Assembly: GCA_964384105.1 (NCBI GenBank) | Contig: CAYLJV010000003.1 | Span: 96,001-160,000 of the forward strand | Reading direction: 5' to 3' | DNA from: Candidatus Hadarchaeota archaeon | Lineage (GTDB): Archaea > Hadarchaeota > Hadarchaeia > Hadarchaeales > JAGGTB01 | DNA: 64,000 bases | In this document: positions 12,004-52,940 of the stretch, in pieces | Layout: each line of letters starts with the position of its first letter | Numbering within the stretch: the first letter of the stretch is position 1 | Position numbers and translations under genes: made by a program | The notes under the pieces: generated by a model | Told to the model about the DNA's origin: nothing | The model's database searches: none | What the model saw: the letters and a program-made list of their open reading frames with translations, nothing else

Positions 12004-12058
12004 GATTCAGGGCACAGTGCACTCTAACTCGTACATAAAGGTCGCTCGGAGGAGGATC
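12004..12058 (+). repeat. 55-bp repeat, copy 1 (other copy 27441-27495)
   Basis: 51/55 identity by eye; both copies precede REC-kinase genes. Confidence 0.9.
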
Positions 12059-12129
12059 GACCATAAAAAAGGAAAATTATTGAAATTGAGGTAATTTTTA
12101 ACCTCGAATACATATTAATATTAAGTGAT

Positions 12130-15690: not shown

Positions 15691-15936
15691 ATGTCAAAGA
15701 AAGCTACAACACTTTATCTTGATGAGGGAACAGTAAAGGAAGCTAAGAGATTAGGTTTTAACTTATCCAGGTCTTGTGAAATAGCGTTAGAACGGAGAAT
15801 ACTGGCTGAGAAACGCAGGTTATCATTCGATTATTCGGAAAACTCTAAAGAAGTCAAACCTAAAATTAATCCTACAGTGATTGCGGGGGTTGCCAAGTCA
15901 GGTCAACGGCGCAGCGTTGAGGGCGCTGTCCCATAG
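15691..15936 (+). CDS. CcdA/RHH-like protein, probable N-terminal fragment of a split integrase, reading into tRNA-Leu
   Basis: GFNLSRSCEIALERRI vs integrase GLNVSKSCELALERRI; stop codon lies inside the tRNA. Confidence 0.65.
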   Translation: MSKKATTLYLDEGTVKEAKRLGFNLSRSCEIALERRILAEKRRLSFDYSENSKEVKPKINPTVIAGVAKSGQRRSVEGAVP

Positions 15937-15970
15937 GGGTTCCGGGGTTCGAATCCCCGCCCCCGCACCA
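15883..15970 (+). tRNA. tRNA-Leu (GAG)
   Basis: GCGGGGG/CCCCCGC acceptor stem, CAGCG-TTGAGGG-CGCTG anticodon arm, long variable arm, GGTTCGAATCC, encoded CCA. Confidence 0.97.
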
Positions 15971-17978: not shown

Positions 17979-18251
17979 TTGTATTAATCCAATGCATTCT
18001 TTGAAAAAATGATAAGAAAAGAATTTCTGAAATAACTCACAGAATATTATTTTACGTCGAACCTAAGAAACATTCAAGTATTAATTGATGGAAATAGAAA
18101 AATCTTATTTTGCGAGTGGTTTAAAACGGTTACCAAAATAATCGGAATTGTAAACCTTCTATTCTTCCAGAAGTGTTTTACGAGTGGTATAGAAAATGAT
18201 AGGGGAAGATGAACTCTTCTCAAAAATATAAGGGGTTAGAGGTCCGATTTT

Positions 18252-18785
18252 ATGGCTGATACTAAGTATAAGGTTAACAATGTCGTCATGACTGTTTCTT
18301 ACGAGAATACTAGATTTAACTTGGAGGAACTTACTTCTAATTTAGAAGGGGCAAGATATGAACCTGAAAGCTTCCCTGGAGTAATCTATAAAACGATCGA
18401 GCCTAAAGCCGCTTTTCTGATATTTTCTTCTGGAAAAGCGAACTGTGTAGGAGCGAATAGTGTCGAAGGAGGGAAGAAGGCAATAGAAAAGCTTACAGAT
18501 AAACTTCAAGATTTAGGGTTTGGTGTTGGTGAGCCAGTCATTGAAGTTCGGAATATGGTTGCTAAAGTGGATTTTCAGAGGAGTTTCGATCTGGAGGAAA
18601 TAGCAAGGAACTTTCCTCACGCAGAATATAATCCAGAAACATTTCCAGGACTCGCATTCAGATTGGAGGGGTATAAGAGTATGATATTTCTGCTTTTTAC
18701 ACAGGGCACAGGGGTCTGTGTCGGAGCTAAGAGTGAGGAAGAGATTGAGGAAGGTATAAGAAGAATAGAAGAGGCCATCGAATAA
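18252..18785 (+). CDS. tbp: TATA-binding protein, divergent paralog
   Basis: Two repeats: YEPESFPGVIY..LIFSSGK and YNPETFPGLAFR..LLFTQG. Confidence 0.93.
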   Translation: MADTKYKVNNVVMTVSYENTRFNLEELTSNLEGARYEPESFPGVIYKTIEPKAAFLIFSSGKANCVGANSVEGGKKAIEKLTDKLQDLGFGVGEPVIEVRNMVAKVDFQRSFDLEEIARNFPHAEYNPETFPGLAFRLEGYKSMIFLLFTQGTGVCVGAKSEEEIEEGIRRIEEAIE

Positions 18786-18822
18786 GAATCTTAAAAATTC
18801 TACAAGTTAGAAAAACATGAAA

Positions 18823-18853
18823 CAATCTATGGCATGGATCAATCCAAACCTAC
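18823..18853 (+). repeat. Hairpin element copy A (partial), core CAATCTATGGCATGG
   Basis: Core identical to copies at 21029-21094 and 26333-26399. Confidence 0.8.
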
Positions 18854-18882
18854 TAGACTAGTAGTTACCCACTTATGACTAT

Positions 18883-18996
18883 TTAGATTAACATTGCAGT
18901 AGCATCCAACTCTATCTGACAGTGAATACACCTGTCCCTGCCATCTTCAATAGTTTCCTTGCTAAGTTTTTTACCACACTCAACACATTTCTTCAT
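18883..18996 (-). CDS. 37-aa C4 zinc-finger microprotein 1 (MKKCVECGKKLSKETIEDGRDRCIHCQIELDATAMLI), not in ORF track
   Basis: AAGGAG SD, TATAAATAG upstream, paralog at 21117-21230 with conserved frame and synonymous changes. Confidence 0.85.
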   Translation of the reverse strand: MKKCVECGKKLSKETIEDGRDRCIHCQIELDATAMLI

Positions 18997-19344
18997 TATC
19001 AAAACTCTCCTTGATCGGCCCTAAGGTCTGAAGCACTATTTATAGGTCACTGTTTGCAGGGTTGAAAAGTGGAAATATGAGTAATGATGACTAATTCTTT
19101 TAATTCCGGAGGATTATTTGGGAATACTTAAAGGAGAGGGGAGAGTAGTTCATACGAAGTCAAGTTTATTGGACGTTACTAAACGTCCACCTTAAACCCG
19201 AGCTGGGCGGTCCCCCCCGACCGTTCAGCTTCCTCCCCCCTTCTCAAAAATTTATTTATATTCATAGACTTCTCTCGAGAGAAGGAACTAAATCAAATGT
19301 TCACAGATGATATCTCTACAGGGAAGAGAACGTATTGTTAACTT

Positions 19345-20298
19345 TCAATACACTTCTACCTCTTCATCGAGCTCTTCAGCTAGTTCTTTGTACCTGTTTC
19401 TAACCGTGACTTCGGTAACGTCTGCAACTTCTGCCACTTCTCTCTGGGTTCTCCTTTCACCACATTTCAGCGCGGCTATGTAGAGTGCTGCTGCAGCTGT
19501 TCCAGAAGGAGTTTTGCCCGATGTCAATTTTTCTTCTTGTGCCTTCCGAATTATCTTCATAGCTTCAACCCTGGCTTCATCTGATATATTCAGCTCGCTT
19601 CCGAACCTGGCTACATACCTGCTTGAGTCCGTGGGGGGAAGATCAATGTCTAATTTTCTTGCAATAAATCGATAGGTGCGTCCTATCTCTTTTTTATCCA
19701 CTCGGCTAACTTCAGTTACCTCTTCGAGAGTTCTGGGCATTTGAGCTTCCCGACAGGCTGCGTAGAGAGTAGCTGAGACCACTCCCTCTATCGAACGGCC
19801 TCTAATTAAATCAGCGTATAAAGCTTCCCGATATATTTTGGAAGTATTTTCTCTCACGTTTCTCGGTAAACCAAGCTGAGAGGCCATCCGATCCATCTCA
19901 GAAAGGGCGAAAGCTAGGTTACGGTCCTTGGCACCTGAAACCCTAATACGTTTTTGCCATTTTCTAAGACGGTACATTTTATAGCGTTTTCCTGGAGACA
20001 GGGTCTTTCCTCGACTGTCTCTATTGCTCCAATCGATTTGGGTTGAGAGCCCCTTATCGTGAATAGTGTACGTCATTGGAGAGCCTCCCCGACTGCGCTC
20101 TTCTCTTTGCTCTTGACTGAAAGACCTCCACTCAGGCCCCCTATCCTTAATATCTTCCTTTATAACAAGGCCGCAGCTCCTGCAAACAATCGTATTCTGT
20201 TGATAATCCCTGACAGTAACACTATTCCCACAATTAGGACAATGAAACTCTGAACTTCTGTTCTTCACTTTCTTAGAGGAATAAGTATCGGTCAACAA
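19345..20298 (-). CDS. tfb: Transcription initiation factor B paralog 1
   Basis: CPNC/CRSC ribbon, [26 protein letters not shown]. Confidence 0.96.
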
Positions 20299-20409
20299 TA
20301 TTCTCTATCCTGATCATTCCTGTTAGTTTTTCCTGAAAGAACAAATTTTCAATTGGTTCCAAAAGGATTGTCCGTTAATTCTGCACTATATTCCGGCTTC
20401 TTTAGCATA

Positions 20410-20487
20410 CTACTCCTCTAAGTTTCTCTCGATCCACCTTACCTTCTCATCAGCAGTCATACTACTCCAGTTATCTGGAACTTTCAT
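20410..20487 (-). CDS. Possible 25-aa peptide (MKVPDNWSSMTADEKVRWIERNLEE) upstream of tfb
   Basis: GAGGA SD and protein-like composition only. Confidence 0.4.
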   Translation of the reverse strand: MKVPDNWSSMTADEKVRWIERNLEE

Positions 20488-20581
20488 AATTCCTCATCTA
20501 TTCAGTTATCTCAAAGTAATCAACTATCTTGTTTATGGGTAGAGTGGTCACTGGAAGTGAACAGAAAATTGACAAATCATC

Positions 20582-20607
20582 TAAGCGGACTAAATGGTTT
20601 AATCAGG
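20582..20607 (+). repeat. 26-bp motif copy 1 (TAAGCGGAC-N5-RGKTTAATCAGG)
   Basis: Also at 20928-20953 and 25649-25674. Confidence 0.8.
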
Positions 20608-20927
20608 CCACCTCTTATCATAGGTGAGGTCTTGATTGAGTAATAATAAAAACACTTTACAAGGAGAACCAAGATAGAATTGTTTGTCCTGCCGGAAAGA
20701 TATCCAAAATATATCCTTAAGTCATCAAACCTCGGAAATTTTTTAAAGTGATGCCGAGGAATTTCAGTTCTCTTTGCTTTCAATTAGTTCAAGAAATCAC
20801 GAATCAACGGGGGATTGCCAGTCCCGGCAGGGCTTTTCCCTTTATATCAAGTATGTCTTTTTATGCAAAGTCGCAGGACTCTCAAGCTATTGTAATAATT
20901 TTGAATTAAATATCTCCTATATGAAGA

Positions 20928-20953
20928 TAAGCGGACAATTTAGGTTAATCAGG
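20928..20953 (+). repeat. 26-bp motif copy 2
   Basis: TAAGCGGACAATTTAGGTTAATCAGG. Confidence 0.8.
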
Positions 20954-21028
20954 CTAGCCAAGTAATTTGGTTATTGTCTGAAGAGGGGAGATTATAATGA
21001 AAAGAGTTAGACTACCAAGTAATTTCCC

Positions 21029-21094
21029 CATGGTAGAGCGTCGATACCGCTATACCCTCAATCTATGGCATGGTTGAGTCGAAACCCGCTAATA
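21029..21094 (+). repeat. Hairpin element copy B
   Basis: Near-identical to 26333-26399 apart from the first hairpin loop. Confidence 0.88.
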
Positions 21095-21116
21095 GTAGAG
21101 GCCCAATTGCGATTTT

Positions 21117-21230
21117 TTAAATTAACATCGCAGTAGAGTCCGACTCGGTCTGACAATTAAAACAACGGTCCCTGCCCTCTTCAATAGCTTCCTTACTCAA
21201 TTCTTTTCCACACTCTATGCACTTTTTCAT
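21117..21230 (-). CDS. 37-aa C4 zinc-finger microprotein 2 (MKKCIECGKELSKEAIEEGRDRCFNCQTESDSTAMLI), not in ORF track
   Basis: AAGGAGTGA SD, TATAAATAG upstream, paralog of 18883-18996. Confidence 0.85.
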   Translation of the reverse strand: MKKCIECGKELSKEAIEEGRDRCFNCQTESDSTAMLI

Positions 21231-21780
21231 TTTCAATTCACTCCTTGATCAGTCCCAGAGAAAGAAGTTCTATTTATAAATTATGAATATCTCTTTTCAA
21301 GTTATTTCAGTTATTTCTTCTATGAACTCTCCAGCAAGCTCGACTTTATTGCCAAAACTTCTTATTAACTGTTTGGATTTACTTTCAGAGAAAAAAGCTC
21401 CTTTTACTCGCAATACATACTTTAGTTACCAACCTCGTAAATTTTTATCCCAAAAAACCGGATTTTACTTGAATTAGCTTCCTAATTGAACGAAAAATCT
21501 GAAGGAATCAAACCCGGGTCTTTTACTTATAAATAAAACCCTTGAAGTCCCTTTTCTTTATAGATAATTGGGCTTACAGGGGATTTATCTCCGAATAAGA
21601 CAAGTTGTTTTACTATATAGATAGTTTTCTTCTGTTTTTATTCCTTAGAAAGGTAAAAAAGAAAGTAAAAGCATGAAGGTGGCCTTCACGAAATTCCGAG
21701 AGAAGTTGGAAAATCAAGATTGAAATCACGAACCGAAAAGCATTTAATTTCAAATTCTGAGTTCGGGAAGGTGAGTTTGA

Positions 21781-21997
21781 GGGGCCGGGATTGTTACCCT
21801 TTCGCGGGCAGGTTGAAAAGCAGCCGATCGGTAGCCGACCGAAGCAGAGCCTGCCGGCATCGCCCGACCCCTGTGCCCCATTCTCAGTAAAAACAAGGAG
21901 GTGAGAAACCCCGAAGGGACACCAAAACCGCCAGTGTTGAAAACTCGGTTCCTAAAGAGAAGAAGTTCACCGGCGGAATCGTAAAACACATGACAAT
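21781..21997 (+). ncRNA. Unrecognised structured ncRNA, copy 1
   Basis: GC-rich, multi-stem, covaries with copy 2; CGAAAAG-CATTTAAT promoter-like element at 21734. Confidence 0.75.
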
Positions 21998-22243
21998 TAA
22001 TGTTATTAAACGAGGAATTCTTTTTGGCTTACTCCCTCCCATATATAATTTAACAATATGTTAAAAATATTCCTATTTTCTGTAATTCTACCTTCACAAA
22101 ACTTTAGCATAAGTAAATAAAAAGAATAAGGAGAGGTCCCTTGGTTCTGAAGAAGGGTCAGGGAGTTCCTCCATTTTTTTACTTTCACCCAACTCAGACA
22201 ACCGCTTAACAGTACATAACCAAAGAGTTAAATCTATGATAAA

Positions 22244-22507
22244 TTGGGAAGGCCCATACCTACTTTCAGATATGTAATCGAGAAAGAGATAGAAAATTGG
22301 AAAGAGTTCAAGAGAGCTTTGAGTAGGAAAGACAAAGAGATTTTCAATAGGATCATGGAGTACTGTAGGAAACACATTCCAGCTTGTTCTCAGACCAACA
22401 ATCCAGAACCCTTTCGGCCTATGATTATTTCTATTATTCTAGAGCAACTAAAGAAATTGAATTTTCCTGAAGAAGCTATCTCGAAAATTCAAGAGTTGAT
22501 AGAATAG
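22244..22507 (+). CDS. Small helical protein of the family usually found beside PolB2 (arCOG07300-like)
   Basis: MGRPIPTFR..W..FKRAL..DKEIF..PF..MIISIILE pattern. Confidence 0.65.
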   Translation: MGRPIPTFRYVIEKEIENWKEFKRALSRKDKEIFNRIMEYCRKHIPACSQTNNPEPFRPMIISIILEQLKKLNFPEEAISKIQELIE

Positions 22508-22571
22508 AAAGAATAAATTCAAAAGGGCAGAAACTATTTTGGTTTTTTACTTCTGTTTTTCTTTAATTGAC

Positions 22572-23507
22572 TTAATATGTTTCCAATTCAATTTCGAGTT
22601 CTTTGGCCACATCCTTATACCTGTTCCTGACAGTGACCTCGGTCACCCCCGCCACCTCAGCAACAGATCTCTGGGTTACTCTCTCCCCACCTTTCAAGGC
22701 GGCTATGTAAAGACACGCAGCAGCCGTCCCACTGGGACTCTTGCCCGAAGTCAGTTTTTTCTCTTGGACTCTCTTAATCAAATACATAGCATTCGTTTGG
22801 ACTTCTCCAGAAATACCAAGCTCACTACCAAAACGAGTCACATAACTGGCCGGATCAGTCGGGGGAAGGTGGATATCTAACTTTCGTGTTAAAAACATGT
22901 AACTACTAGTGATCTTCTTCATCTTAACTCGGCTTACCTCTTCGATCTCCTCAAGAGTTCGAGGCATCTTTGCTTCACGACATGCTGCATAAAGTGTAGC
23001 TGATACGACACCTTCGATTGATCTACCACGAATCAAGCCCTTTTCAACAGCCTCTCTGTAAATTTTTGACGCGATCTCCTGCGTACTTCTCGGCAGACCC
23101 AGCTGAGATGTCATCCTACTCATCTCACCAAGTGCAATGATCAAATTTCTATCACCTGAACTAGCGATCCTGCTTCGATTATGCCACTTTCTCAGTCGGT
23201 ACATCTGCTGGGACTTTTTTGGAGACAGATTCTTACCCTTCGCATCTCTGTTCTTCCAGTCAATATTAGTGGAAAGTCCTTTATCGTGAATAGTGCCCGT
23301 TGAAGGAGGCCCGGATCTCTTTTTATTCTGATATTCTTTGGCACTGAAAGCTCGCCATTCTGGACCCCTGTCCTTAATACTCTCTTCTATGATCCTACCG
23401 CAATCAGCACATATTCTAACGTTTTGCTGATAATCCATAATCCTGGAGGTACTACCACAGTTCGGACATTTAGCGGATGCTTTCTCAGAACCCTTAATAG
23501 AACTCAC
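22572..23507 (-). CDS. tfb: Transcription initiation factor B paralog 2
   Basis: CPNC/CADC ribbon, [26 protein letters not shown]. Confidence 0.96.
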   Translation of the reverse strand: MSSIKGSEKASAKCPNCGSTSRIMDYQQNVRICADCGRIIEESIKDRGPEWRAFSAKEYQNKKRSGPPSTGTIHDKGLSTNIDWKNRDAKGKNLSPKKSQQMYRLRKWHNRSRIASSGDRNLIIALGEMSRMTSQLGLPRSTQEIASKIYREAVEKGLIRGRSIEGVVSATLYAACREAKMPRTLEEIEEVSRVKMKKITSSYMFLTRKLDIHLPPTDPASYVTRFGSELGISGEVQTNAMYLIKRVQEKKLTSGKSPSGTAAACLYIAALKGGERVTQRSVAEVAGVTEVTVRNRYKDVAKELEIELETY

Positions 23508-24026
23508 ATTATTACTCTTCTTCCCATCTACTAGTACTTTCCTCCGATTTTTCAGAATACGCTAAGGAGGAACTTAAGTAGTTCAAAAATGATTTTGAAA
23601 AGCCAGCCAAATATAAACTCTAACTCTACACCAAAAACACTTAAAAACTCGAAAACATCAAAAATACACTCAATCGATAAATAAATACCTAAAAAGTCTT
23701 AGAATTTTGTTCCAGACCATAAATATTCTTAAATAAGGTGACAGAACACCATATTTATTCTCATAGGGAATCCAGTTAACTCTTTCATAAAAGTTAAAAA
23801 TTAACTAATTGTTTTTCAATCAAAATATCAATTTTATCCATATAAAATTCATACCTATATCATCTTAGATGATATGGTAAAATCGGAATATTGATAGTTT
23901 TTAGTTTTTAGAAGTTTTTACTGAAATGAGAAATGAATAGTTTCTAAAGAGAAAGTAGATAAGAATTGAAAATGGTGGATAAGGTTTTAATTGTATCCAA
24001 GATTAGGAGGATTTGGAGGGGTTACA

Positions 24027-24242
24027 ATGAGCAAAACTAATCAATCAGTCACAGAAGAAGATGATGAGATTTTCAGCAATGAAAGATTTGCAGAAACAAC
24101 AATACAGAGGATAAGCAAGTATGTAAAAAATTACGGTGAGAAGGACAAGGAGGATATTTACAAGCTACTGAAACGGTGTTATGTGGCTCTGTGCCGATTG
24201 AGGAATTGGGAGCCACAAGATCTCGACAAATTCAGGGATTAA
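24027..24242 (+). CDS. Hypothetical protein
   Basis: ATG after GGAGGGG SD. Confidence 0.55.
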   Translation: MSKTNQSVTEEDDEIFSNERFAETTIQRISKYVKNYGEKDKEDIYKLLKRCYVALCRLRNWEPQDLDKFRD

Positions 24243-24346
24243 TGCATTATTTGGATGGTTATCTCCGATTTAACTTGAAAAATCCTAAATAAAAAATCGA
24301 AAAGTATTTTAATTCCAAAACAGTGATTTTGATAGATTGAAAATAA

Positions 24347-24563
24347 GGGGCCGGGATTGTTACCCTTTCGCGGGCAGGTTGTTGCCTATACCAGTTTAGG
24401 TCGGTCGCCAACCAACCACAGAGCCTACCGGAACGCCCGGCCCCAGAGCCCCCTTAAACCGAGCCAATGGGGAGGTGAGAAACTCCATAGGGGGACTCAT
24501 TCCGCCGGTGTTTGTAAATTCTGTCCTCAAGAGAAGAAAAGATACCGGCGGGAGCTTGATAAT
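24347..24563 (+). ncRNA. Unrecognised structured ncRNA, copy 2
   Basis: First 35 nt identical to copy 1; compensatory changes; CGAAAAG-TATTTTAAT at 24298. Confidence 0.75.
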
Positions 24564-24817
24564 GGAAATGTTAACTAAAGCATCTGAACTAGAAAGAAGC
24601 CTTTTCTTTAATCCACCCCCCCAATTGATTCATCGGAATTAAACTCCGTATGCAAAGACCCTTTGCCATCTGAATGTGTGCATTTAAATTTTACGAATTG
24701 TGTCGAAAGTTTTAGGGCAAGGATTTTGTTTGAAACTGTGGAGCTTATGGTTCACTTAAGGTAAATAATGAGGAGAGTTCAACAAATTTTCAGTTAAAAA
24801 CTCCTATTTTTTAGTTT

Positions 24818-25075
24818 CTAGCTACGAGGAAGCAAATTCCTCATCTGATGGTATTTTTCGAGAAATTTTGAGCCCTTTTCAGTTAAATCCCACTGTAAAG
24901 GCGAGTGGGCCCTTACTTCAACGAGACCATTTTTCCGTAGCTGTTCGAGATACTCATTGCATCTCTTAAAGTTCAAGTTTGCTTTATAAACAATATGGGT
25001 TTTTCGAGATTTATGTTTAACAGCTGTTAGAAGATCTGCATAAACATCGAATCTTGTTCTTCGGTCCCTACCCAT
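24818..25075 (-). CDS. Winged-helix transcription regulator (COG3432/HTH_45-like)
   Basis: RRTRFDVYADLL..KTHIVYKANLNF..LTEKG. Confidence 0.85.
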   Translation of the reverse strand: MGRDRRTRFDVYADLLTAVKHKSRKTHIVYKANLNFKRCNEYLEQLRKNGLVEVRAHSPLQWDLTEKGSKFLEKYHQMRNLLPRS

Positions 25076-25648
25076 AATACCCTAAGTTGTTCTTACCAAA
25101 CCACCTTACTTAAGGTTAGCTTACTACTAGTACAGAACATTATTCTTAGGAAGGGTAAAAAGCGAACTTTCTGTATTTTTTAACATAATGTTTGAAGAAA
25201 ATATTTGTTAGTGTCGGATTGAAAGTTTTAGGATAGAAAATAAAAAGAATAAAGGGGTATACGCCTTTTCCCTTTCTCTCTTAAACAATATGATTAGAAA
25301 AAATATAGTGGGTTTGTTTAATAATTATTTATATGGAATAATTTTGTGAAAAAAATAGAACTCTCTAAAACTAAACAGAGAGAAAATTGGAATAGGATCA
25401 GTAATGTGATAAAAATTAGTGCAGTTAGTTTTTTGCAACTGTCCCTACCATTTTCTATTTAATTTTCGTACAATTTACCTACTATTTTGAAGGCTCTGGA
25501 TTATCATACCATACAATAATCGTTGTAGTTGTTCCTTATTTCGGATTTTCACTACTTGCTTTAAAAAAACTGGAGACCACTAAAAAGCCTCACAGAAAAA
25601 TAGGCTATACTAAAGAGATCTGAAGGTTCCCAAATGAATTGGATCATG

Positions 25649-25674
25649 TAAGCGGACTGAATGGGTTAATCAGG
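25649..25674 (+). repeat. 26-bp motif copy 3
   Basis: TAAGCGGACTGAATGGGTTAATCAGG. Confidence 0.8.
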
Positions 25675-25784
25675 TTAGGTTATTTGAAACGGTAATTTAG
25701 TTATTAATAGATTTTCTTCGAGTTTGGCTCATAGAACCCTATAAGTTTTGAAACAAGACTTGTTTATTCTTATGTGAGTCCCTT

Positions 25785-26321
25785 ATGAAAAAGGATAGAA
25801 AATCAGATAGGAAGAAAAAGGTTGCTATCGGGATAATCATAATAATTTTAGTAGTGATAGTCGCATACCTATATTTCTCTGGAGGTTCTACCGAAGCAGA
25901 AGAGGTCAACAGTGTTGACATTGAAGTAGAAGGTGATACCAATCTTGGTTTCTCTGGAGAATACAGGATGAGGGCCAGAGGTTTGCAAAAAGAGAAACCA
26001 GACGTGAGGTTGGATATAACTTCTGGAAAACCCGCTATGACTATCTGGATCTACAATAGCGAGGAGGGCGAACTATATGGGTATAATTCTGATGACGACT
26101 ATTGGGTTAACCTTTCGGAAATGCCCGACTTAGAGTATCTACAAGAATTCGCAAAATCAATGAGAGACTACGTGAGTTCAGGAGAGGGTGACATGACAGT
26201 AGAATATCAAGGGTCGAAATATGAATTGAGAATTAATGAAGTAAACCCATCACTCCCCGACAGTCTATTCACTCCACCAGAAGATGCAAAAATGGAGAAC
26301 TTAGTTCCAAAGAATCTGTAA
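25785..26321 (+). CDS. Membrane-anchored extracellular protein
   Basis: Basic N-terminus plus TM helix; C-terminal LPDSLFTPP. Confidence 0.75.
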   Translation: MKKDRKSDRKKKVAIGIIIIILVVIVAYLYFSGGSTEAEEVNSVDIEVEGDTNLGFSGEYRMRARGLQKEKPDVRLDITSGKPAMTIWIYNSEEGELYGYNSDDDYWVNLSEMPDLEYLQEFAKSMRDYVSSGEGDMTVEYQGSKYELRINEVNPSLPDSLFTPPEDAKMENLVPKNL

Positions 26322-26332
26322 ATTCAAACTTA

Positions 26333-26399
26333 CATGATAGAGCGTATCTGACGCTATACCCTCAATCTATGGCATGGTTGAGGCCAAACCCGATTAATA
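26333..26399 (+). repeat. Hairpin element copy C, about 10 bp from integrase stop
   Basis: Matches 21029-21094. Confidence 0.88.
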
Positions 26400-26409
26400 C
26401 TTACCTTAA

Positions 26410-27438
26410 TCAGAGAATTTCAATTCCAACTTTATCATATATCTTCTTCAAGTGCTTTGGTGTTTGTCCATTGTAGTTTCTCAAGTCAATACTTCCGAAG
26501 TGCCCAAGTAACATTTCCTTAATGTCAGTTGATCCGCCTTTCCTATCCCATTCTTGTGAGAAGAACTTCCTGCAGTGCTTCAGTTTTAGGTCTGGTTTTT
26601 CATCCATCTTGTTTGTAATGAGATAGATAGCCTTGTGAATGAATGGTCTTTCAGGAAACATTCCCTTCAACTTCTTCAGTCTCTTCTGTGCCTTTTTGTT
26701 GAAAACTACAATTCTTTCTCCTTTGGTCTTGGTCTCCTCCGCTGGAAGATTGATAATCCTATCATCGAGATTAATATCCTCCCAGTCTAACCTGTAAACC
26801 TCCCAGGGCCTCATCCCAGTAACAGCAGAAAGGTGAACTGCAGTCTGTGCTCTGTAAACGTATTTGTGTTCAGTGCCCTCGTGATCTAATTCATCCATAA
26901 GATTGAGAATATCTTCCTTCTCCACTATCTTAGGCCTGTGTTTACTCAAATTGGGTTTCTTGATCTTCTCAATCCAGTAAACGTTCATCTCCTTGAAGAA
27001 CTGCTTGATTGCTTGAATGTCATCGGAGAGAGTTCTGTTAGAAACCTCATCTCTTCTCTCGTTAAGATAATCAGTCACATCATTGAGACTGCAGGACCAA
27101 TTCACGTGTTCTCCCAGTTTTTCTAATTTTCCCTTAACTGCATTTATTCTTAGAGAACTTCTACCAGCCGCTTTTAGTCTGTTACAAAACTCTTCTATAT
27201 CTTTCTTCGAAAATGAGACCTTGTGATTATTGCCTTTGTTTCCATTACCATTCGGATAACTTCCATTTTGTGGTTTGAAGTTGTGATTGTTTGCTACATT
27301 GGAGTCTATTTCCTCTAGAGTTATGATTCTTCTCTCCAGAGCTAATTCACAGGACTTAGATACATTAAGCCCCTCTTCCTCGGCCCTCTCAACTAAACTT
27401 TTGGATATTTGAACTGTAATTTTATCTTCTATATTCAT
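26410..27438 (-). CDS. Tyrosine recombinase/integrase with N-terminal CcdA-like RHH domain
   Basis: TGMR, TKTK, KHCR, LGH, RNY catalytic set; ATG 27438 likely start. Confidence 0.92.
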   Translation of the reverse strand: MNIEDKITVQISKSLVERAEEEGLNVSKSCELALERRIITLEEIDSNVANNHNFKPQNGSYPNGNGNKGNNHKVSFSKKDIEEFCNRLKAAGRSSLRINAVKGKLEKLGEHVNWSCSLNDVTDYLNERRDEVSNRTLSDDIQAIKQFFKEMNVYWIEKIKKPNLSKHRPKIVEKEDILNLMDELDHEGTEHKYVYRAQTAVHLSAVTGMRPWEVYRLDWEDINLDDRIINLPAEETKTKGERIVVFNKKAQKRLKKLKGMFPERPFIHKAIYLITNKMDEKPDLKLKHCRKFFSQEWDRKGGSTDIKEMLLGHFGSIDLRNYNGQTPKHLKKIYDKVGIEIL

Positions 27439-27440
27439 TT

Positions 27441-27495
27441 GATTCAGGGTGCAGTACACTCTAACTCGTACATAAAGGTCGCTCTGAGGAGGATC
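27441..27495 (+). repeat. 55-bp repeat, copy 2 (probably contains the integrase promoter on the minus strand)
   Basis: Matches 12004-12058; TTTATGTA on minus strand about 30 nt before ATG 27438. Confidence 0.85.
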
Positions 27496-27570
27496 AAGTT
27501 TAAAAAAGGAGTTTAAAAGTGAAATCACGTGTTTTTTTAGCTTATTACTTATATAACATTAACAATAGAT

Positions 27571-30500
27571 ATGAAAGTTCTTCTCGTTGATGATGAGCCT
27601 GATATTTTAGAACAGGCTAAAATCTTTCTCGAAAAAGAGGAGGAAAGGTTGAGTGTTGAAACTGTTGCTTCAGCTAGGGAAGCTCTGAATTTATTGGAGA
27701 AAAACGAATATGATGGTATAGTATCGGATTACCAGATGCCTGAGATGGATGGGCTTAGCGTTTTAAAAATTTTAAGAAAGGAAAGGCAAAATGGCATTCC
27801 ATTCATAGTGTTCACCGGTAAAGGTCGTGAGGATGTGGCTATGAAGGCCTTGAATCTTGGGGCCGATCGTTACTTGCAGAAGGGCGGTGATCCTAGGTCT
27901 CAGTATGGTGTATTGGCACAAGCTATAGTCCAAGAGATCGAGCATTGGAAGCATAAAAGGGAATTAAGGAGTATTGGTTGGCTTCTCACAAAGGGGGTAG
28001 AAGAAACAACTTACGAACCACCTTATGACGATCTAACAGAGCTGAATACTGAAAGAACGATATTGGACTCCATAGGAAAAGACCTGCTTCAAGATATTGT
28101 GGATCATTTTATGAGCTTACTTGACACTTCAAGTGCAGTCTACGAGAAAAATGGTGATTATGCATTAGGAATCTTCGCTTCCAAATGGTGTAAATTCATG
28201 GATAAAAAATCCAGAGATCTCTGCAACAAAGATGATAATCAAGAAGCATTAGATTGTGGAAAATGGATCTGTCACGAATCCTGTTGGAATGCTGCAAAAA
28301 TCTCAATGGAAAAGGGTAAACCTGTCGACGTTGAATGCAGCGGAGGAATAAACCTGTACGCAGTTCCAATCCGAGCGGATGGAGAAATTATTGGCTCCAT
28401 AAATTTCGGTTATGGAGAACCGCCAAAAGATCCAGACAAGTTAGAAGAGCTCTCAGAAAAATACCAGGTAAGTATTGAGGAACTCCGTAAAAATGCGAGT
28501 TCATACGAACCTCGTCCTCATTTCATTATTGAAGTTGCCAAGAACAGGTTACGAACTTCAGCCAGACTGATAGGGGAAATCGTGAGAAGAAAAAGGTCTG
28601 AAAGAGAATTAGCAAAGGAAAGAGATAGAGTTCAAAAGTATCTGGAAACCGCTGAAGTAATGATAGTAGCGATAGGCAAGGACCACAAAGTTATGGAGAT
28701 AAACAGAAGAGGTTGTGAAATACTCGGTTATGATAAGAAAGAAATTATTGGAAAAGACTGGTTCGAGAATTTCATTCCTGAAAGAACGAGAAAAAGCTTG
28801 CTTAAGGAGATTCTAGAGCCGTTGATGGAAGGAAATATTGACAAAGCCCAAAGGCATGAAAATCCTGTACTGACCAAAGACGAAGAAGAGAGAATTTTGT
28901 CCTGGAGAAATACCGTGCTAACTGACGATACTGGAGAAATCATCGGAACTCTAAGCTCAGGAATGGACATTACCGAACAAAAAGAAATGGAGAACGAGCT
29001 GCGTGAGAGTGAGGAGAAGTACAGGCGACTTTTCGAGACCGCTCAAGATGGAATGCTTATACTGAACGCCGACTCCGGAGAGATAATGGATGCTAATCCT
29101 TACATTCAAGAACTTTTGAGTTATTCGAAGGAGGAGCTTGTGGGAAAGGAGCTCTGGCAGATAGGAACCTTTAGGGATATTGTTGAGAACAAGGAGAAGT
29201 TTGAGGAGTTGGTGGATGAGGATTATATTCGTTACGAAGATATGCCTCTGGAAACGAAAGGCGAAGAGGAGGCTTCGGTCGAGTTCGTCAGCAATACGTA
29301 CGAGGCCGGTGGAGAAAAAGTAGTGCAGTGTAACATCAGAGATATTACGGAGAGAAAGAAGGCTGAAGAGGAGTACAGGAATCTTTTCGAAACTATGGCT
29401 CAGGGCGTGGTTTATCAGGATTCTGAAGGAAACATTATTTCGGCCAACCCTGCTGCTGAAAGGATGTTGGGGTTGACGGTTGATCAGATGAAGGGGCGGA
29501 CTTCTAGACATCCTGAGTGGAAGGCAATTAGGGAGGATGGGAGTCCTTTTCCTGGAGAGGAACATCCTGCCATGGTTGCTCTACGAACGGGAGAGGAAGT
29601 GAGAGATGTCGTTATGGGTGTTTACCATCCTGAAAAAGAAGACCATGTCTGGATCAATATAAATGCATTACCTCGGTTTCGGGAAGGTGAGGAAGAACCA
29701 TACCAGGTGTATACTACGTTCGAGGACATCACTGAGCGGAAGAGAGCGGAGGATAAACTCCGTGAGAGAGTCAAAGAATTAAGCCTGTTTTACAATTTTT
29801 CGAAGCTTGTTGAAGAGTTGGGGAATTCTCTGGAGAATATACTTCGGGGATTAGTGGATTTGATTTCTCCTGCGTTGCAGTATCCAGAGATAACCTGTGC
29901 CAGATTAGTTTTGGATGATGAGGAGTTTAAAACAGACAATTATGAGGAATCCAAGTGGAAACTGAAAAGCAATATTCTTGTGGAAGAGGAGAACAGGGGT
30001 TTTCTCGAGGTTGATTATTTAGAAGAAAAACCTGAACTGGACATAGGTTCTTTCCTAGAAGAAGAAAGAGATCTCTTAGAGGCTATCACAGAACGATTGG
30101 GCAAGATAATAGGCCGACTTGAATTAGAAGAAAAAGTCCGAGAGAGTGAGGAAAAATTCAGGAGTTTGTTCGAGTCTTCCCAGGACGCGGTTATGGTTCT
30201 TAAACCGCCCAAATGGGAGTTTACCTCTGCCAACCCGGCTACCGTGGAAATGTTTAGGGTGGAGGACGAGTCCGATTTTTGCTCGAGACCGCCAAGGGCG
30301 TATGCCCCTGAAAAACAACCGGACGGTCAGTCGTCCAAGGTAAAAGCGAAAAAGATGATCGACAAAGCGATGAGCGAAGGTGAGGTTTTCTTTGAATGGA
30401 CACATAAACGGTTAGATGGTGGGGAATTCCCTGCCACGGTTTTACTAAGTCGAGTGGAGGTCGGAGAGGAGAGTTTTTTGCAAGCTACAGTGCGAGACAT

Positions 30501-31521
30501 CACCGAACGAAAGGAAGCTGAGGAGAGACTTAAGGAAAGTGAGGAAAAGTTTCGAAGTTATGTGGAAAATGCGCCGAATGGAGTATTTGTCGTTGATAAG
30601 GATGGAAACTACCTTGAAGTTAACAAAACTGCTTGTGAGGTGACAGGATATTCTGAAGAAGAACTGCTAGAAATGAATATATCAGATCTAGTTACCTCTG
30701 AAGCTCGCGACAAAGCTATAGAAACTTTTGAAGAGCTTCTTGAAACAGGAAAAATGAGAACGGAACTCCCCTACCTCAGGAAAGATGAAGGCAAAGGATA
30801 CTGGAGTATAAATGCTGTAAAGATCTCGGATGATCGCTATCTTGGTTTTGTCGAGGATATCACGGAGCGAAAAGAAGCGGGGGAGAGGGAGAAGTTCCTC
30901 CACTCACTGTTGAGGCATGACGTTCGAAACAAGGCTCAGATCGTGCAGGGATATCACGAACTGTTGTTGGACTGTGATATGCCCGAAGAGGCGGAGGACT
31001 ACGTGGAGAAGGCTAGTAAGGCAGTTCGGGACAGCATAGATCTGATCGAAAAGGTTAGGACGTTGAGGGAAGTTGGTGAAAAGGAAGAGTTGGGGGAGGT
31101 TAGCATTGGATCGATCCTGGATAAAGTGATTAGTGAAAGTGAGTCTCAAGCTGATGAAAAAGGAATAAAAATAGAATCGGGGAGTTTGGACTGCAAAGTT
31201 CAGGGTGGGCCCCTCTTGGAGGAACTTTTCTCAAACCTTGTGGAAAATTCAATAGAACATGCCGGTTGTAGAAAAATCCTGATTTTGGGAGAAGAGACCA
31301 ATGAGAAGTTTATAGTAACAGTTGAGGACGACGGTAAGGGAATTCCGGAGAATAAAAGAGACAGAATATTCGAAAAAGGTTACAAAGCAGGGGAAACCAG
31401 CGGGTCCGGTTTGGGGCTCTATCTGGTCAAGGAAATAGCTGAGAGTTACGGTGGCTCAGTTGAAGTCAAGGACTCCGAATTAGGTGGAGTAAGATTTGAT
31501 GTCAGTCTCGAAAAAGCTTAG
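27571..31521 (+). CDS. Large hybrid sensor kinase REC-PocR-multi-PAS-HisKA-HATPase
   Basis: Receiver, Cys-rich PocR-like segment (VECSGGINLYAVPI), about 5 PAS domains, RHDVRN. Confidence 0.92.
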   Translation: MKVLLVDDEPDILEQAKIFLEKEEERLSVETVASAREALNLLEKNEYDGIVSDYQMPEMDGLSVLKILRKERQNGIPFIVFTGKGREDVAMKALNLGADRYLQKGGDPRSQYGVLAQAIVQEIEHWKHKRELRSIGWLLTKGVEETTYEPPYDDLTELNTERTILDSIGKDLLQDIVDHFMSLLDTSSAVYEKNGDYALGIFASKWCKFMDKKSRDLCNKDDNQEALDCGKWICHESCWNAAKISMEKGKPVDVECSGGINLYAVPIRADGEIIGSINFGYGEPPKDPDKLEELSEKYQVSIEELRKNASSYEPRPHFIIEVAKNRLRTSARLIGEIVRRKRSERELAKERDRVQKYLETAEVMIVAIGKDHKVMEINRRGCEILGYDKKEIIGKDWFENFIPERTRKSLLKEILEPLMEGNIDKAQRHENPVLTKDEEERILSWRNTVLTDDTGEIIGTLSSGMDITEQKEMENELRESEEKYRRLFETAQDGMLILNADSGEIMDANPYIQELLSYSKEELVGKELWQIGTFRDIVENKEKFEELVDEDYIRYEDMPLETKGEEEASVEFVSNTYEAGGEKVVQCNIRDITERKKAEEEYRNLFETMAQGVVYQDSEGNIISANPAAERMLGLTVDQMKGRTSRHPEWKAIREDGSPFPGEEHPAMVALRTGEEVRDVVMGVYHPEKEDHVWININALPRFREGEEEPYQVYTTFEDITERKRAEDKLRERVKELSLFYNFSKLVEELGNSLENILRGLVDLISPALQYPEITCARLVLDDEEFKTDNYEESKWKLKSNILVEEENRGFLEVDYLEEKPELDIGSFLEEERDLLEAITERLGKIIGRLELEEKVRESEEKFRSLFESSQDAVMVLKPPKWEFTSANPATVEMFRVEDESDFCSRPPRAYAPEKQPDGQSSKVKAKKMIDKAMSEGEVFFEWTHKRLDGGEFPATVLLSRVEVGEESFLQATVRDITERKEAEERLKESEEKFRSYVENAPNGVFVVDKDGNYLEVNKTACEVTGYSEEELLEMNISDLVTSEARDKAIETFEELLETGKMRTELPYLRKDEGKGYWSINAVKISDDRYLGFVEDITERKEAGEREKFLHSLLRHDVRNKAQIVQGYHELLLDCDMPEEAEDYVEKASKAVRDSIDLIEKVRTLREVGEKEELGEVSIGSILDKVISESESQADEKGIKIESGSLDCKVQGGPLLEELFSNLVENSIEHAGCRKILILGEETNEKFIVTVEDDGKGIPENKRDRIFEKGYKAGETSGSGLGLYLVKEIAESYGGSVEVKDSELGGVRFDVSLEKA

Positions 31522-31526
31522 GATAG

Positions 31527-32015
31527 ATGAGTGATAAGATGGAGAAATTCAAAAAAAGGGAATTTAGACAATACCGTGAATTGATAGACGGTATGAACGA
31601 CGCCGTATTTATCCACGATCTAAATTGTAATTTCCTTTCAGTGAACCAAGTGGCTGTCGACCGGCTTGGCTACTCGGAAGAAGAACTACTTTCCATGGGG
31701 TTAGATGATATAGATGGTTCGAAAGAAGGAAAAAAGGTCAAAGATAGAATCCAAGAAATAGAAAAAAAAGAAACGATAGTTTTTGAATCCATTCATGTTA
31801 CGAAAAGTGGGGAAAAAATCCCCGTAGAGATAAGTTCAAGTCCGATAAATTATCGAGGCGAACCGGCAGTCTTCAGCGTGGTTAAAGATATTAAGGAAAG
31901 GAAAAGAGTGGAGGAGGCCTTGCGCGATATTACTTCTGCCATGGTTTCCCAAATAGGTTCCGGGGTTCGAATCCCCGCCCCCGCATCACAACCCCAATTA
32001 GCTAAAATAATCTAA
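31527..32015 (+). CDS. PAS-domain protein, apparently truncated at att site
   Basis: Single PAS; last codons run through the tRNA-derived repeat. Confidence 0.7.
   Translation: MSDKMEKFKKREFRQYRELIDGMNDAVFIHDLNCNFLSVNQVAVDRLGYSEEELLSMGLDDIDGSKEGKKVKDRIQEIEKKETIVFESIHVTKSGEKIPVEISSSPINYRGEPAVFSVVKDIKERKRVEEALRDITSAMVSQIGSGVRIPAPASQPQLAKII
31956..31985 (+). repeat. att repeat 1: tRNA-Leu 3' end
   Basis: GGTTCCGGGGTTCGAATCCCCGCCCCCGCA identical to tRNA 3' end. Confidence 0.93.
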
Positions 32016-33434: not shown

Positions 33435-33728
33435 CTACGATTCCTTCTCTTCTCCCTGATCCACTCTGTCTTTTAGAGCCTCCACCCTCTCTGGAATATA
33501 CGCTGACTTCCGGTGGTCAACCCCAATTACTCCTAAATCATCTCCATGTTTCCAGTAATAGATTCTGTAGTCACTGACTCGGAGTGCCCAAATTCTCCCG
33601 CGAATGTGTCTAACATCACCACGTTCAGTTTTGTAATAATTTTCTATGCTACTTATGATTCTTTCTCTTATCTCGGAGGGGAGTTTATCGAGTTCACGTA
33701 AAGCAGCTTTATGGCATTTGAGGGTCAA
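33435..33728 (-). CDS. RelE/ParE-family toxin
   Basis: ALRELDKLP..WALRVSDYRIYY..VDHRKSAY. Confidence 0.85.
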   Translation of the reverse strand: MTLKCHKAALRELDKLPSEIRERIISSIENYYKTERGDVRHIRGRIWALRVSDYRIYYWKHGDDLGVIGVDHRKSAYIPERVEALKDRVDQGEEKES

Positions 33729-33928
33729 CCGGCCCGCTCCTCTTTAAGTCGCTGGAATGAAACGTACTCCTCATCGGGAGCTCCAGCCCGACGCTCTAAT
33801 TCCTCTAATCGAGACTCATATGCAGCAATAAGATCCATAATTATCTCATCGTAAGTTTCACCCTTGTGTCCGATACCCCGAAGCCTTTCTCTTGTTTCCC
33901 GCTTGACTTGAATAGTAGTTTTAACCAT
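33725..33928 (-). CDS. Cognate RHH-like antitoxin
   Basis: TTIQVKRETRERL..GETYDEII; overlaps toxin start. Confidence 0.8.
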   Translation of the reverse strand: MVKTTIQVKRETRERLRGIGHKGETYDEIIMDLIAAYESRLEELERRAGAPDEEYVSFQRLKEERAG

Positions 33929-34105: not shown

Positions 34106-34137
34106 GGGGTTCCGGGGTTCGAATCCCCGCCCCCGCA
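34106..34137 (+). repeat. att repeat 2: tRNA-Leu 3' end
   Basis: GGGGTTCCGGGGTTCGAATCCCCGCCCCCGCA. Confidence 0.93.
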
Positions 34138-34320
34138 ACATCCTAATTTGAGGAATTTTGCAGGTTTGTCTTCTATAAATTATTAGCAATATAAAGAATA
34201 CCAGATATAATTCTGAACTTAGTTAAGTACTGGTTTTTATCTATCAATTGGTTGTTTTATTAGTAACTGTCGAGGAGGCAGATGGAATAAAGATATCCAT
34301 TCAAAGGAGAGGGTGAAATT

Positions 34321-52463: not shown

Positions 52464-52755
52464 TGCTGGCGAGCCGGTGGACGGCTCACGGGGATCTCCT
52501 GAGGAAACTCCGCCCACCGGACGGGACCGCAGGGTCGAAAGGACCCCGGCTGAGAGGCCGGACCCTGGAACAGAAACGATACCTCCCAGTCTCCAGGCGA
52601 TGATGCAGTCAATGCTGAGGTCGGGCTGGTGGAGGGTGGAACGGCCAATCTGCGGGGTGCAAGGGCAAAAAACCGCCGATGAATTCCCGTCGGAGGCGGG
52701 TGGTAGCCCGCTAAGCTGAATGCCGTCTAGAACAGAAGGCGGGTTACGGCCGGCA
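52464..52755 (+). ncRNA. rnpB: RNase P RNA
   Basis: GAGGAAACTCCGCCC and AACAGAAGGCGGGTTA (P4), GGAACAGAAAC, GGGTGCAAG; terminal P1 pairing. Confidence 0.95.
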
Positions 52756-52940
52756 CGCCGGTTTCATTTCGACTTCTAATATTCTTGATTATGGTTTTTA
52801 CAGATATCCTTAAACACTTCAGATTTTGTTATGAATCTCAGATTTCCGACTTGAAAAGACCAAATTTTCTCTATTTTTAGAAAAAGGATAGCTTTTTACC
52901 CAAAATTTACTTAAACTCTTTTCGCGAATAAGCACTTCGT

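Follow-up and report, generated by a model that had tools for sequence, protein, structure and literature searches.

Three direct copies of a short palindromic sequence lie among genes for archaeal basal transcription factors and end beside a tyrosine recombinase gene, which raises the question of whether they are sites at which this recombinase collects and reshuffles TFB genes or copies of something that spread by another route. The locus is part of a 64-kb window of contig C3 from an archaeal genome assembly of 1.62 Mb (12 contigs, 90% complete), and positions given without a contig name are those of this window. The original prediction favored recombination sites of the adjacent integrase, forming an integron-like array of TFB cassettes, with a 3' untranslated region (3'-UTR) type of element spread by duplication as the alternative. 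An integron-like TFB cassette array, if true, would be a new archaeal route to vary basal transcription factors, but the evidence points elsewhere. The claim of recombination sites failed every test with a clear outcome, and the alternative gives the better fit, with homology between two of the copies continuing through a small zinc-ribbon (ZnF) gene and a related flank behind the orthologous gene of a sister species. The repeats are probably paralogous copies of the 3' flank of this ZnF gene unit, multiplied by local duplication.

The motif is a real, local, and lineage-specific noncoding repeat. Its 15-mer core, CAATCTATGGCATGG, is present in exact copies at 18823, 21059, and 26363 of the plus strand (copies A, B, and C), as predicted. 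The window contains no other match with up to 2 mismatches, and none of 100 dinucleotide shuffles of the window reaches three matches. Genome-wide, the same three exact copies are found together with three two-mismatch matches elsewhere. A profile of B and C recovers C (E value of 1.9e-21), B (7.3e-21), and A (0.035) from the genome, with the next match at an E value of 2.8. The element is thus confined to this locus and is not the generic genome-wide 3' structure named as the counter-case to the cassette array. A BLAST search with copy C against 60 related genomes does not find the motif (best match, a 17-nucleotide [nt] word with an E value of 0.021). A covariance model based only on those two copies, B and C, and hence of little reach, gives a best E value of 0.175 in 60 related genomes, and a degenerate 28-nt pattern has no matches in collections of metagenome contigs or viral contigs. 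Rfam 15 contains no family matching the motif at the gathering threshold, nor at an E value of ≤5 over positions 18000 to 27000, and ARAGORN detects no tRNA at the motif. Three candidate identities were rejected: a tRNA fragment or intron-bearing tRNA (no D- or T-arm patterns by eye, with ARAGORN and Rfam empty), a C/D-box or H/ACA RNA (B and C have no conserved boxes in common), and a micro-open reading frame (micro-ORF) starting at the ATG of the core (MAW... of 10, 23, and 35 codons with different ends).

Copies B (21029 to 21088) and C (26333 to 26392) are identical at 52 of 60 nt (87%), with sharp ends and unalignable flanks; the predicted shared stretch of about 66 nt is therefore real but slightly shorter. 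The 33 nt of copy A agree with B at 27 positions and with C at 25. Both hairpins described for B and C exist as palindromes, TAGAGCG-N7-CGCTATA and CCTCAATC-N8-GGTTGAGG, whose predicted folds offer no clear gain over shuffled sequences. Copy A lacks hairpin 1 and the right-arm symmetry of palindrome 2. The 8-nt center of palindrome 2, TATGGCAT, is identical in all three copies, while the arms differ. Of the eight differences between B and C, five are clustered in the loop of palindrome 1, which is 7 nt long (hypergeometric P value of 2e-4), and the loop of C is the reverse complement of the loop of B, apart from one small insertion or deletion. This flipped loop indicates that the inverted repeat of palindrome 1 is real as DNA, and the difference looks like a single hairpin-mediated flip.

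Each copy follows the stop codon of a gene on the minus strand by 14 to 30 nt (ZnF1 for A, ZnF2 for B, and the integrase gene for C), in agreement with the prediction, although the integrase stop codon (26410 to 26412) is 14 to 17 nt from C and not about 10. Copies A and C are in addition located 3' of plus-strand genes, those for TBP and a 178-amino-acid (aa) membrane protein, respectively. Homology between A and B extends over 222 nt at 75% identity (18823 to 19044 and 21059 to 21278), includes the ZnF gene, and stops shortly after a TATA-like ctatttata that both copies have about 45 nt upstream of the ZnF start codon. Since this homology spans motif to promoter, A and B each form the 3' end of one copy of a duplicated gene unit. 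Among 64 other genomes of the order, the sole close ZnF orthologue is found in the sister species G002 (81% identical), in a different context adjoining a row of tRNA-Leu fragments and histidine-kinase genes. The 3' flank of this orthologue (the first 45 nt past the stop codon) matches 20 of 32 motif positions in the same place, a level attained by 2 of 1,000 shuffles. The TBP and TFB1 orthologues of G002 are convergent, with neither ZnF gene nor motif between them and a spacer of 36 nt that is too short to place the boundaries of what is missing relative to the window. With the ZnF gene and its flank elsewhere and the spacer empty, the ZnF-plus-motif unit appears to move as one piece, without TFB. 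The TFB orthologues of G001 and G002 show 73% and 68% amino acid identity with TFB1, compared to 61% and 63% with TFB2, and TFB1 and TFB2 are 66% identical as DNA. On these values the TFB duplication looks older than the ZnF duplication, which is a poor fit to one ancestral cassette copied whole.

The origin by local duplication is visible in the alignment for A and B, and we infer it for C. Similarity between C and A extends a few bases beyond the motif toward the gene (TAATACTTACC versus TAGTAGTTACC), and the integrase gene, with its stop codon just past C, stands where the ZnF gene stands next to A and B. In the proposed sequence of events, a unit of ∼220 nt comprising the motif, the 37-codon ZnF gene, and the TATA-like box would have been copied locally, giving rise to A and B. 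Copy C would be a solo copy of the ZnF 3' flank, now located behind the integrase gene. The cassette-like order would then stem from old duplications of local extent, in a rearranged island adjoining tRNA-Leu, and not from site-specific cassette capture, and the repeat would be a small piece of lineage-specific noncoding DNA travelling with a 37-codon zinc-ribbon gene.

The function of the motif is a separate matter. Transcripts of the minus-strand genes would include the motif as their 3' trailer, in which its two imperfect palindromes may fold into stem-loops that would mark the transcript 3' ends, or protect them, between convergent genes. This role is put forward tentatively, as a possibility that falls a little short of probable; it would account for a motif kept 82 to 88% alike amid intergenic DNA that has diverged beyond recognition. 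Repetitive extragenic palindromes (REPs) and 3'-UTR stem-loops are imperfect palindromes of 20 to 30 nt situated just after stop codons in convergent spacers, and the motif likewise consists of imperfect palindromes after stop codons in convergent spacers. Unlike such elements, it is not dispersed but present in three copies in one 7.6-kb stretch, and its fold is no more stable than those of shuffles. The full account, a lineage-specific ZnF 3'-flank element with a 3'-end role spread by local duplication, is held with evenly divided confidence.

Several points weigh against this account. On either strand, the z scores of the predicted RNA fold (−0.4 to −2.0) show no clear advantage over shuffles, and those of the minus-strand 3' flanks are +0.4 to −0.8. 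No U run follows the hairpins of B or C, so the motif is not an obvious terminator. Two to three copies are too few for a covariation test, and the loop change may be one inversion event, which weakens the argument for selection drawn from the clustered differences. The motif is absent from the other five genomes of the genus, so that its conservation rests on one weak orthologous flank. All of the sequencing runs found (6 of 6) are DNA. The solo position of C behind the integrase is not accounted for, and an invariant 8-nt center with inverted arms also resembles the core site of a recombinase.

The coordinates of the repeat copies and the surrounding features are compiled in Table 1.

Table 1. 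Repeat copies, genes, and other elements of the locus, in window coordinates
Feature	Position	Strand	Remarks
Copy A	18823-18855	+	right-hand 33 nt of motif only; T-rich sequence in place of hairpin 1
Copy B	21029-21091	+	full motif, two imperfect palindromes
Copy C	26333-26395	+	full motif, solo; 12 nt past stop of 178-aa gene, 14-17 nt from integrase stop
Integrase-N-like ribbon-helix-helix (RHH) ORF, 81 aa	15691-15936	+	runs into tRNA-Leu
tRNA-Leu(GAG)	15883-15970	+	
TBP paralogue	18252-18785	+	PF00352, E 2.9e-46; convergent with ZnF1 and TFB1
ZnF1, 37-aa zinc-ribbon microprotein	18883-18996	-	homologous unit 18823-19044
Conserved 125-nt element	19114-19241	-	between ZnF1 and TFB1
TFB1	19345-20298	-	PF00382, PF08271
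32-nt motif copy 1 (the 26-bp motif of the original prediction)	20576-20607	+	91% identical to copy 3
32-nt motif copy 2, weaker	20922-20953		
ZnF2, 37 aa	21117-21230	-	76% identical to ZnF1 over 37 aa; unit 21059-21278
R2a, GC-rich repeat of ~260 nt	21731-22076	+	
87-aa ORF	22244-22507	+	
TFB2	22572-23507	-	98% copy of unit 22499-23891 on contig C12
83-aa ORF	23991-24242	+	
R2b	24291-24595	+	36-nt exact core in common with R2a; R2a and R2b bracket TFB2
Winged helix-turn-helix (wHTH) gene	24818-25075	-	
32-nt motif copy 3	25643-25674	+	91% identical to copy 1
178-aa membrane-anchored protein	25785-26321	+	no family match; paralogue on contig C8, next to another TFB
Tyrosine recombinase, 342 aa from M31 of longest ORF	26410-27438	-	RHH-like N-terminal domain
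1316-aa PAS histidine kinase	27571-31521	+	
tRNA-Leu 3' fragment	31956-31988	+	
tRNA-Leu 3' fragment, second	34106-34141		

The order of repeat, ZnF gene, TFB gene, and a motif of 26 to 32 nt is indeed present in both the A-B and B-C intervals, with copies of the last motif at 20576, 20922, and 25643. The B-C interval holds much more than the A-B interval, namely, the R2 pair, two small ORFs, the wHTH gene, and the 178-aa gene, of which tblastn finds no decayed homologue in the A-B interval. Across the whole genome there are 22 TFIIB-repeat matches at ∼12 loci on 8 contigs; TFB1 and TFB2 are a small part of a scattered TFB family and not an array. The 32-nt motif (TAAGCGGACT..AATGG.TTAATCAGG) occurs only at this locus in the genome; with copy 3 situated 110 nt upstream of the gene for the 178-aa protein, a role as promoter or operator is possible. 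The R2 family consists of GC-rich sequences of ∼260 nt with long self-complementary stretches, and the 36-nt core is identical in the window copies. It has six copies in the genome, the others being located at C4:50906-51252, C1:135633-135886, C1:397603-397781, and C4:84901-84993. No copy is found in 60 relatives at an E value of 1e-6, and there is no Rfam match. Upstream of ZnF1, the noncoding 125-nt element shows 79% conservation in two congeneric species (L049, 13822 to 13947; L051, 1 to 131) and has a second copy in the genome at C4:11799-11880, without an Rfam match. Its consensus fold contains two GC-rich hairpins, in which 2 of 24 pairs are kept through two-sided changes.

Duplication without any function of the repeat is the first alternative to be weighed. 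The copies would then be neutral leftovers of local duplication and small-scale gene conversion, which seems doubtful. The small number of copies (just three, all within 7.6 kb), their absence from the 60 relatives, the folds no better than shuffles, and the reduction of copy A to half of the element are consistent with it, and an identical run of 15 nt in a 222-nt unit at 75% identity is not very unlikely (∼0.7 expected by our estimate). It is opposed by the 87% identity of B and C over 60 nt between unalignable flanks, though TFB1 and TFB2 are far more diverged as DNA, and by the greater similarity of the G001 and G002 TFBs to TFB1 than to TFB2, which suggests that the duplication is old. 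The related flank behind the G002 orthologue likewise argues against neutrality, as does the 32-nt motif, which shows the same local conservation.

Recombination sites, active or relic, are an unlikely explanation. Inverted arms of 7 to 10 nt around the invariant TATGGCAT would be recognized by a tyrosine recombinase, perhaps the neighboring one, that excises or reshuffles the A-B and B-C modules or once-integrated tandem elements. Three direct copies with two modules correspond to the n+1 pattern of tandem integration or amplification, the arms of palindrome 2 vary around its fixed center, the B-C homology is sharp-ended, and an intact recombinase gene adjoins copy C. The setting in an integration hot spot, with an integrase-N relic running into tRNA-Leu and two tRNA-Leu fragments, is also consistent with this explanation. 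Against it, copy A lacks right-arm symmetry, and the integrase lies outside both intervals. To the right of the integrase, no fourth copy that could be the missing attR is detected at ≤2 mismatches, by BLAST, or by profile search.

Archaeal integrons are reported in one preprint (bioRxiv 10.1101/2022.02.06.479319), and the locus shares with integrons a tyrosine recombinase gene at one end of direct palindromic repeats that each follow a gene. The attC consensus was predicted to be lacking, which holds for the left arm, CCTCAAT, unfit for RYYYAAC, but not for the right arm of B, GTTGAGT, which fits GTTRRRY (consensus as quoted in the original prediction); no other right arm fits, and A is without symmetry. 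The integrase itself scores 30.0 bits with the integron integrase model TIGR02249, compared to a cutoff of 265, and its best NCBIfam match is the archaeal XerA (64.4 bits, with a cutoff of 220). It is the 3' end of the gene and not its 5' end that faces the repeats, so that the stop codon instead of the start codon abuts copy C. Sites of the attC type are 57 to 141 nt long. The arms of the motif are 8 nt apart and not at the ends of a long attC hairpin, and there are only three sites. Within the intervals there are multiple genes, encoded on both strands, and the ZnF units have a TATA-like box of their own. Integron cassettes, by comparison, are mostly single ORFs that lack promoters and share one orientation, and the integron integrase is transcribed away from them, its 5' end carrying attI and a promoter. 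The analogy with integrons thus breaks down for the integrase type, the attC sites, and the orientation and gene content of the array.

In suicidal (SSV-type) archaeal integrases, the attachment (att) site is contained within the integrase ORF, and the gene is split upon integration, as described in PMC8371274; the tRNA att sites of SSV-type archaeal integrases are also treated in PMC7253208. The relatives of the window integrase are 28 to 49% identical to it and derive mostly from metagenome-assembled genomes labelled Thermoplasmatota and from metagenomes. Of the 102 loci fetched, the 51 with enough flanking sequence, a few of which may be one contig filed twice, were screened for att repeats. 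Nine of these (L038, L059, L081, L085, L091, L098, L100, L104, and L107) carry, in the 5' region of their integrase ORF, a direct repeat of 42 to 179 nt whose partner is 3 to 8 kb away and overlaps a tRNA gene in all nine. In L098 and L100, the N-terminal RHH piece enters repeat copy 2 in the frame in which the catalytic piece leaves copy 1. As in suicidal integrases, relatives are split into N- and C-terminal pieces that each adjoin a tRNA-derived repeat. These enzymes follow the suicidal mode, with an att site that equals part of a tRNA gene located in the ORF just after an RHH-like N-terminal domain and the gene split, and this arrangement speaks against A, B, and C as sites of the window integrase. 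Repeats near the integrase 3' end occur only in L043 and L125 (same sequence) and L131. L043/L125 were rejected as a parallel: the 58-nt repeat lies 190 nt past an integrase fragment, its partner is 5.7 kb further on, and the two bracket an unrelated three-gene operon. The motif is absent from all 102 integrase loci (724,348 nt; best nhmmer E value of 5.7), which excludes it as a 3'-flank signature of the integrase family and further opposes its use as a recombination site. The 150 nt past the integrase match in the loci of 20 relatives contain no common motif. The case is mostly of cautionary value: direct hairpin repeats adjoining an integrase gene need not be its sites. The att sites of the relatives lie inside the integrase gene.

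The window integrase differs from the split relatives in being intact, and it is the only full copy in the genome. The search for an internal att site at 27201 to 27340 yields no significant partner in the genome (best match, a 15-nt word with an E value of 0.16) and no tRNA-like match. Contrary to the suicidal att sites, the motif of A, B, and C lies outside the ORF and is not tRNA-like. The domain given for suicidal integrases in PMC8371274 is PF16795. The window integrase instead belongs to PF00589 (45.1 bits), without a PF16795 match at an E value of ≤1, and the relative L098 reaches 16.6 bits with PF16795, below the cutoff of 27. The suicidal relatives of the PF00589 type may represent an undescribed branch in Thermoplasmatota-like archaea, although the family tables of PMC8371274 might already list it.

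Variation at the repeats, as integrons show in cassette content between strains, was followed in Logan contigs for four of the six DNA runs found, all four belonging to a single study; the other two, with a share of 0.07, come from salt lakes. No contig of these runs joins two of A, B, and C as predicted for circles or deletions between copies; such contigs drop rare forms, and the missing joints are absence of evidence only. Contigs end inside a 31-nt word common to B and C (X1 records 1, 2, and 4; X2 record 12), as contigs from de Bruijn graphs must break at shared words. In one X2 contig, position 21237 connects back to position 19021 via 16 further letters. This joint could be counted in favor of recombination sites, but it has a depth of 2.6 and a shorter side of 48 nt and falls within the ZnF units, outside the motif, which fits a strain variant or homologous exchange. 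A joint of 19403 to 22721 (side, 22), present in all four runs, looks like another TFB paralogue. The TFB2 unit at 22499 to 23891, made up of the gene plus 384 nt of upstream and 73 nt of downstream sequence, has its 98% copy at C12 56 to 1448 between unrelated flanks, and contig depth over the unit is approximately doubled in runs X1 and X2. This second copy is either a strain variant or the product of a recent duplication of one gene-sized unit. Its existence would suit mobile modules, but it is bounded at 22499 and 23891 and not at the repeats. In conjunction with the non-integron type and the orientation of the integrase, the tRNA-derived att sites in the ORFs of its relatives, the multigene intervals on both strands with ZnF TATA-like boxes, and the 102 loci without the motif, the lack of A/B/C joints leaves the integron-like reading unsupported.

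A regulatory role at the DNA level is improbable as well, slightly more so than recombination sites. Here, the palindromes would act as operators bound by a dimeric regulator encoded nearby, with the wHTH protein (24818 to 25075), the RHH domain of the integrase, and the ZnF protein as candidates, and their binding would coordinate the expression of convergent gene pairs. Conserved stems with a freely varying spacer in palindrome 1, several small DNA-binding proteins encoded within 2 kb, and the confinement of the element to this locus are in line with operators. The sites, however, are placed at gene 3' ends on both strands and not at promoters, and copy A has neither palindrome 1 nor the symmetry of palindrome 2. 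The recruitment of a tRNA-att-type integrase to crossover sites at TATGGCAT, with excision, amplification, or reshuffling of TFB and ZnF modules, would amount to a programmable DNA switch for the archaeal basal transcription machinery but is very improbable.

Of more interest than the repeat as a putative cassette boundary is its setting, a tRNA-Leu hot spot with split-integrase relics, TBP and TFB paralogues, and two unclassified structured-looking repeat families. The first 40 residues encoded by the ORF at 15691 to 15936 resemble the integrase N terminus (45% over 33 aa). The course of this integrase-N-like ORF into tRNA-Leu is the junction form seen in L100 and a further likeness to suicidal integrases. 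Fragments of the tRNA-Leu 3' end are found 16 and 18 kb downstream of the intact tRNA-Leu(GAG). In G002 (L049, equivalent to G002:C48, 215 to 11088), there are five tRNA-Leu fragments, three of which lie 38 to 40 nt past a gene for a PAS histidine kinase. The pattern suggests that kinase-bearing units were integrated or duplicated at tRNA-Leu more than once, and to judge from its sequence, the region is an integration hot spot.

The integrase start (M31) is 2 to 3 nt away from a 60-nt leader, and a near-identical leader precedes the paralogous kinase gene at 12130. In total, leaders of ∼60 nt stand before three paralogous PAS histidine-kinase genes (27441 to 27500, 12004 to 12063, and C10:991-1050), and the window copies are ∼97% identical in the leader, compared to ∼81% in the coding sequence that follows. 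To the left of the second tRNA-Leu fragment, 33435 to 33928 of the minus strand encodes a 67-aa RHH protein and a 97-aa RelE/ParE-looking ORF arranged head to tail, which, from the translations alone, are likely a toxin-antitoxin pair. The archaeal RNase P RNA is located at 52469 to 52758 of the plus strand (RF00373, 219.8 bits), and its presence confirms that the contig is chromosomal and archaeal.

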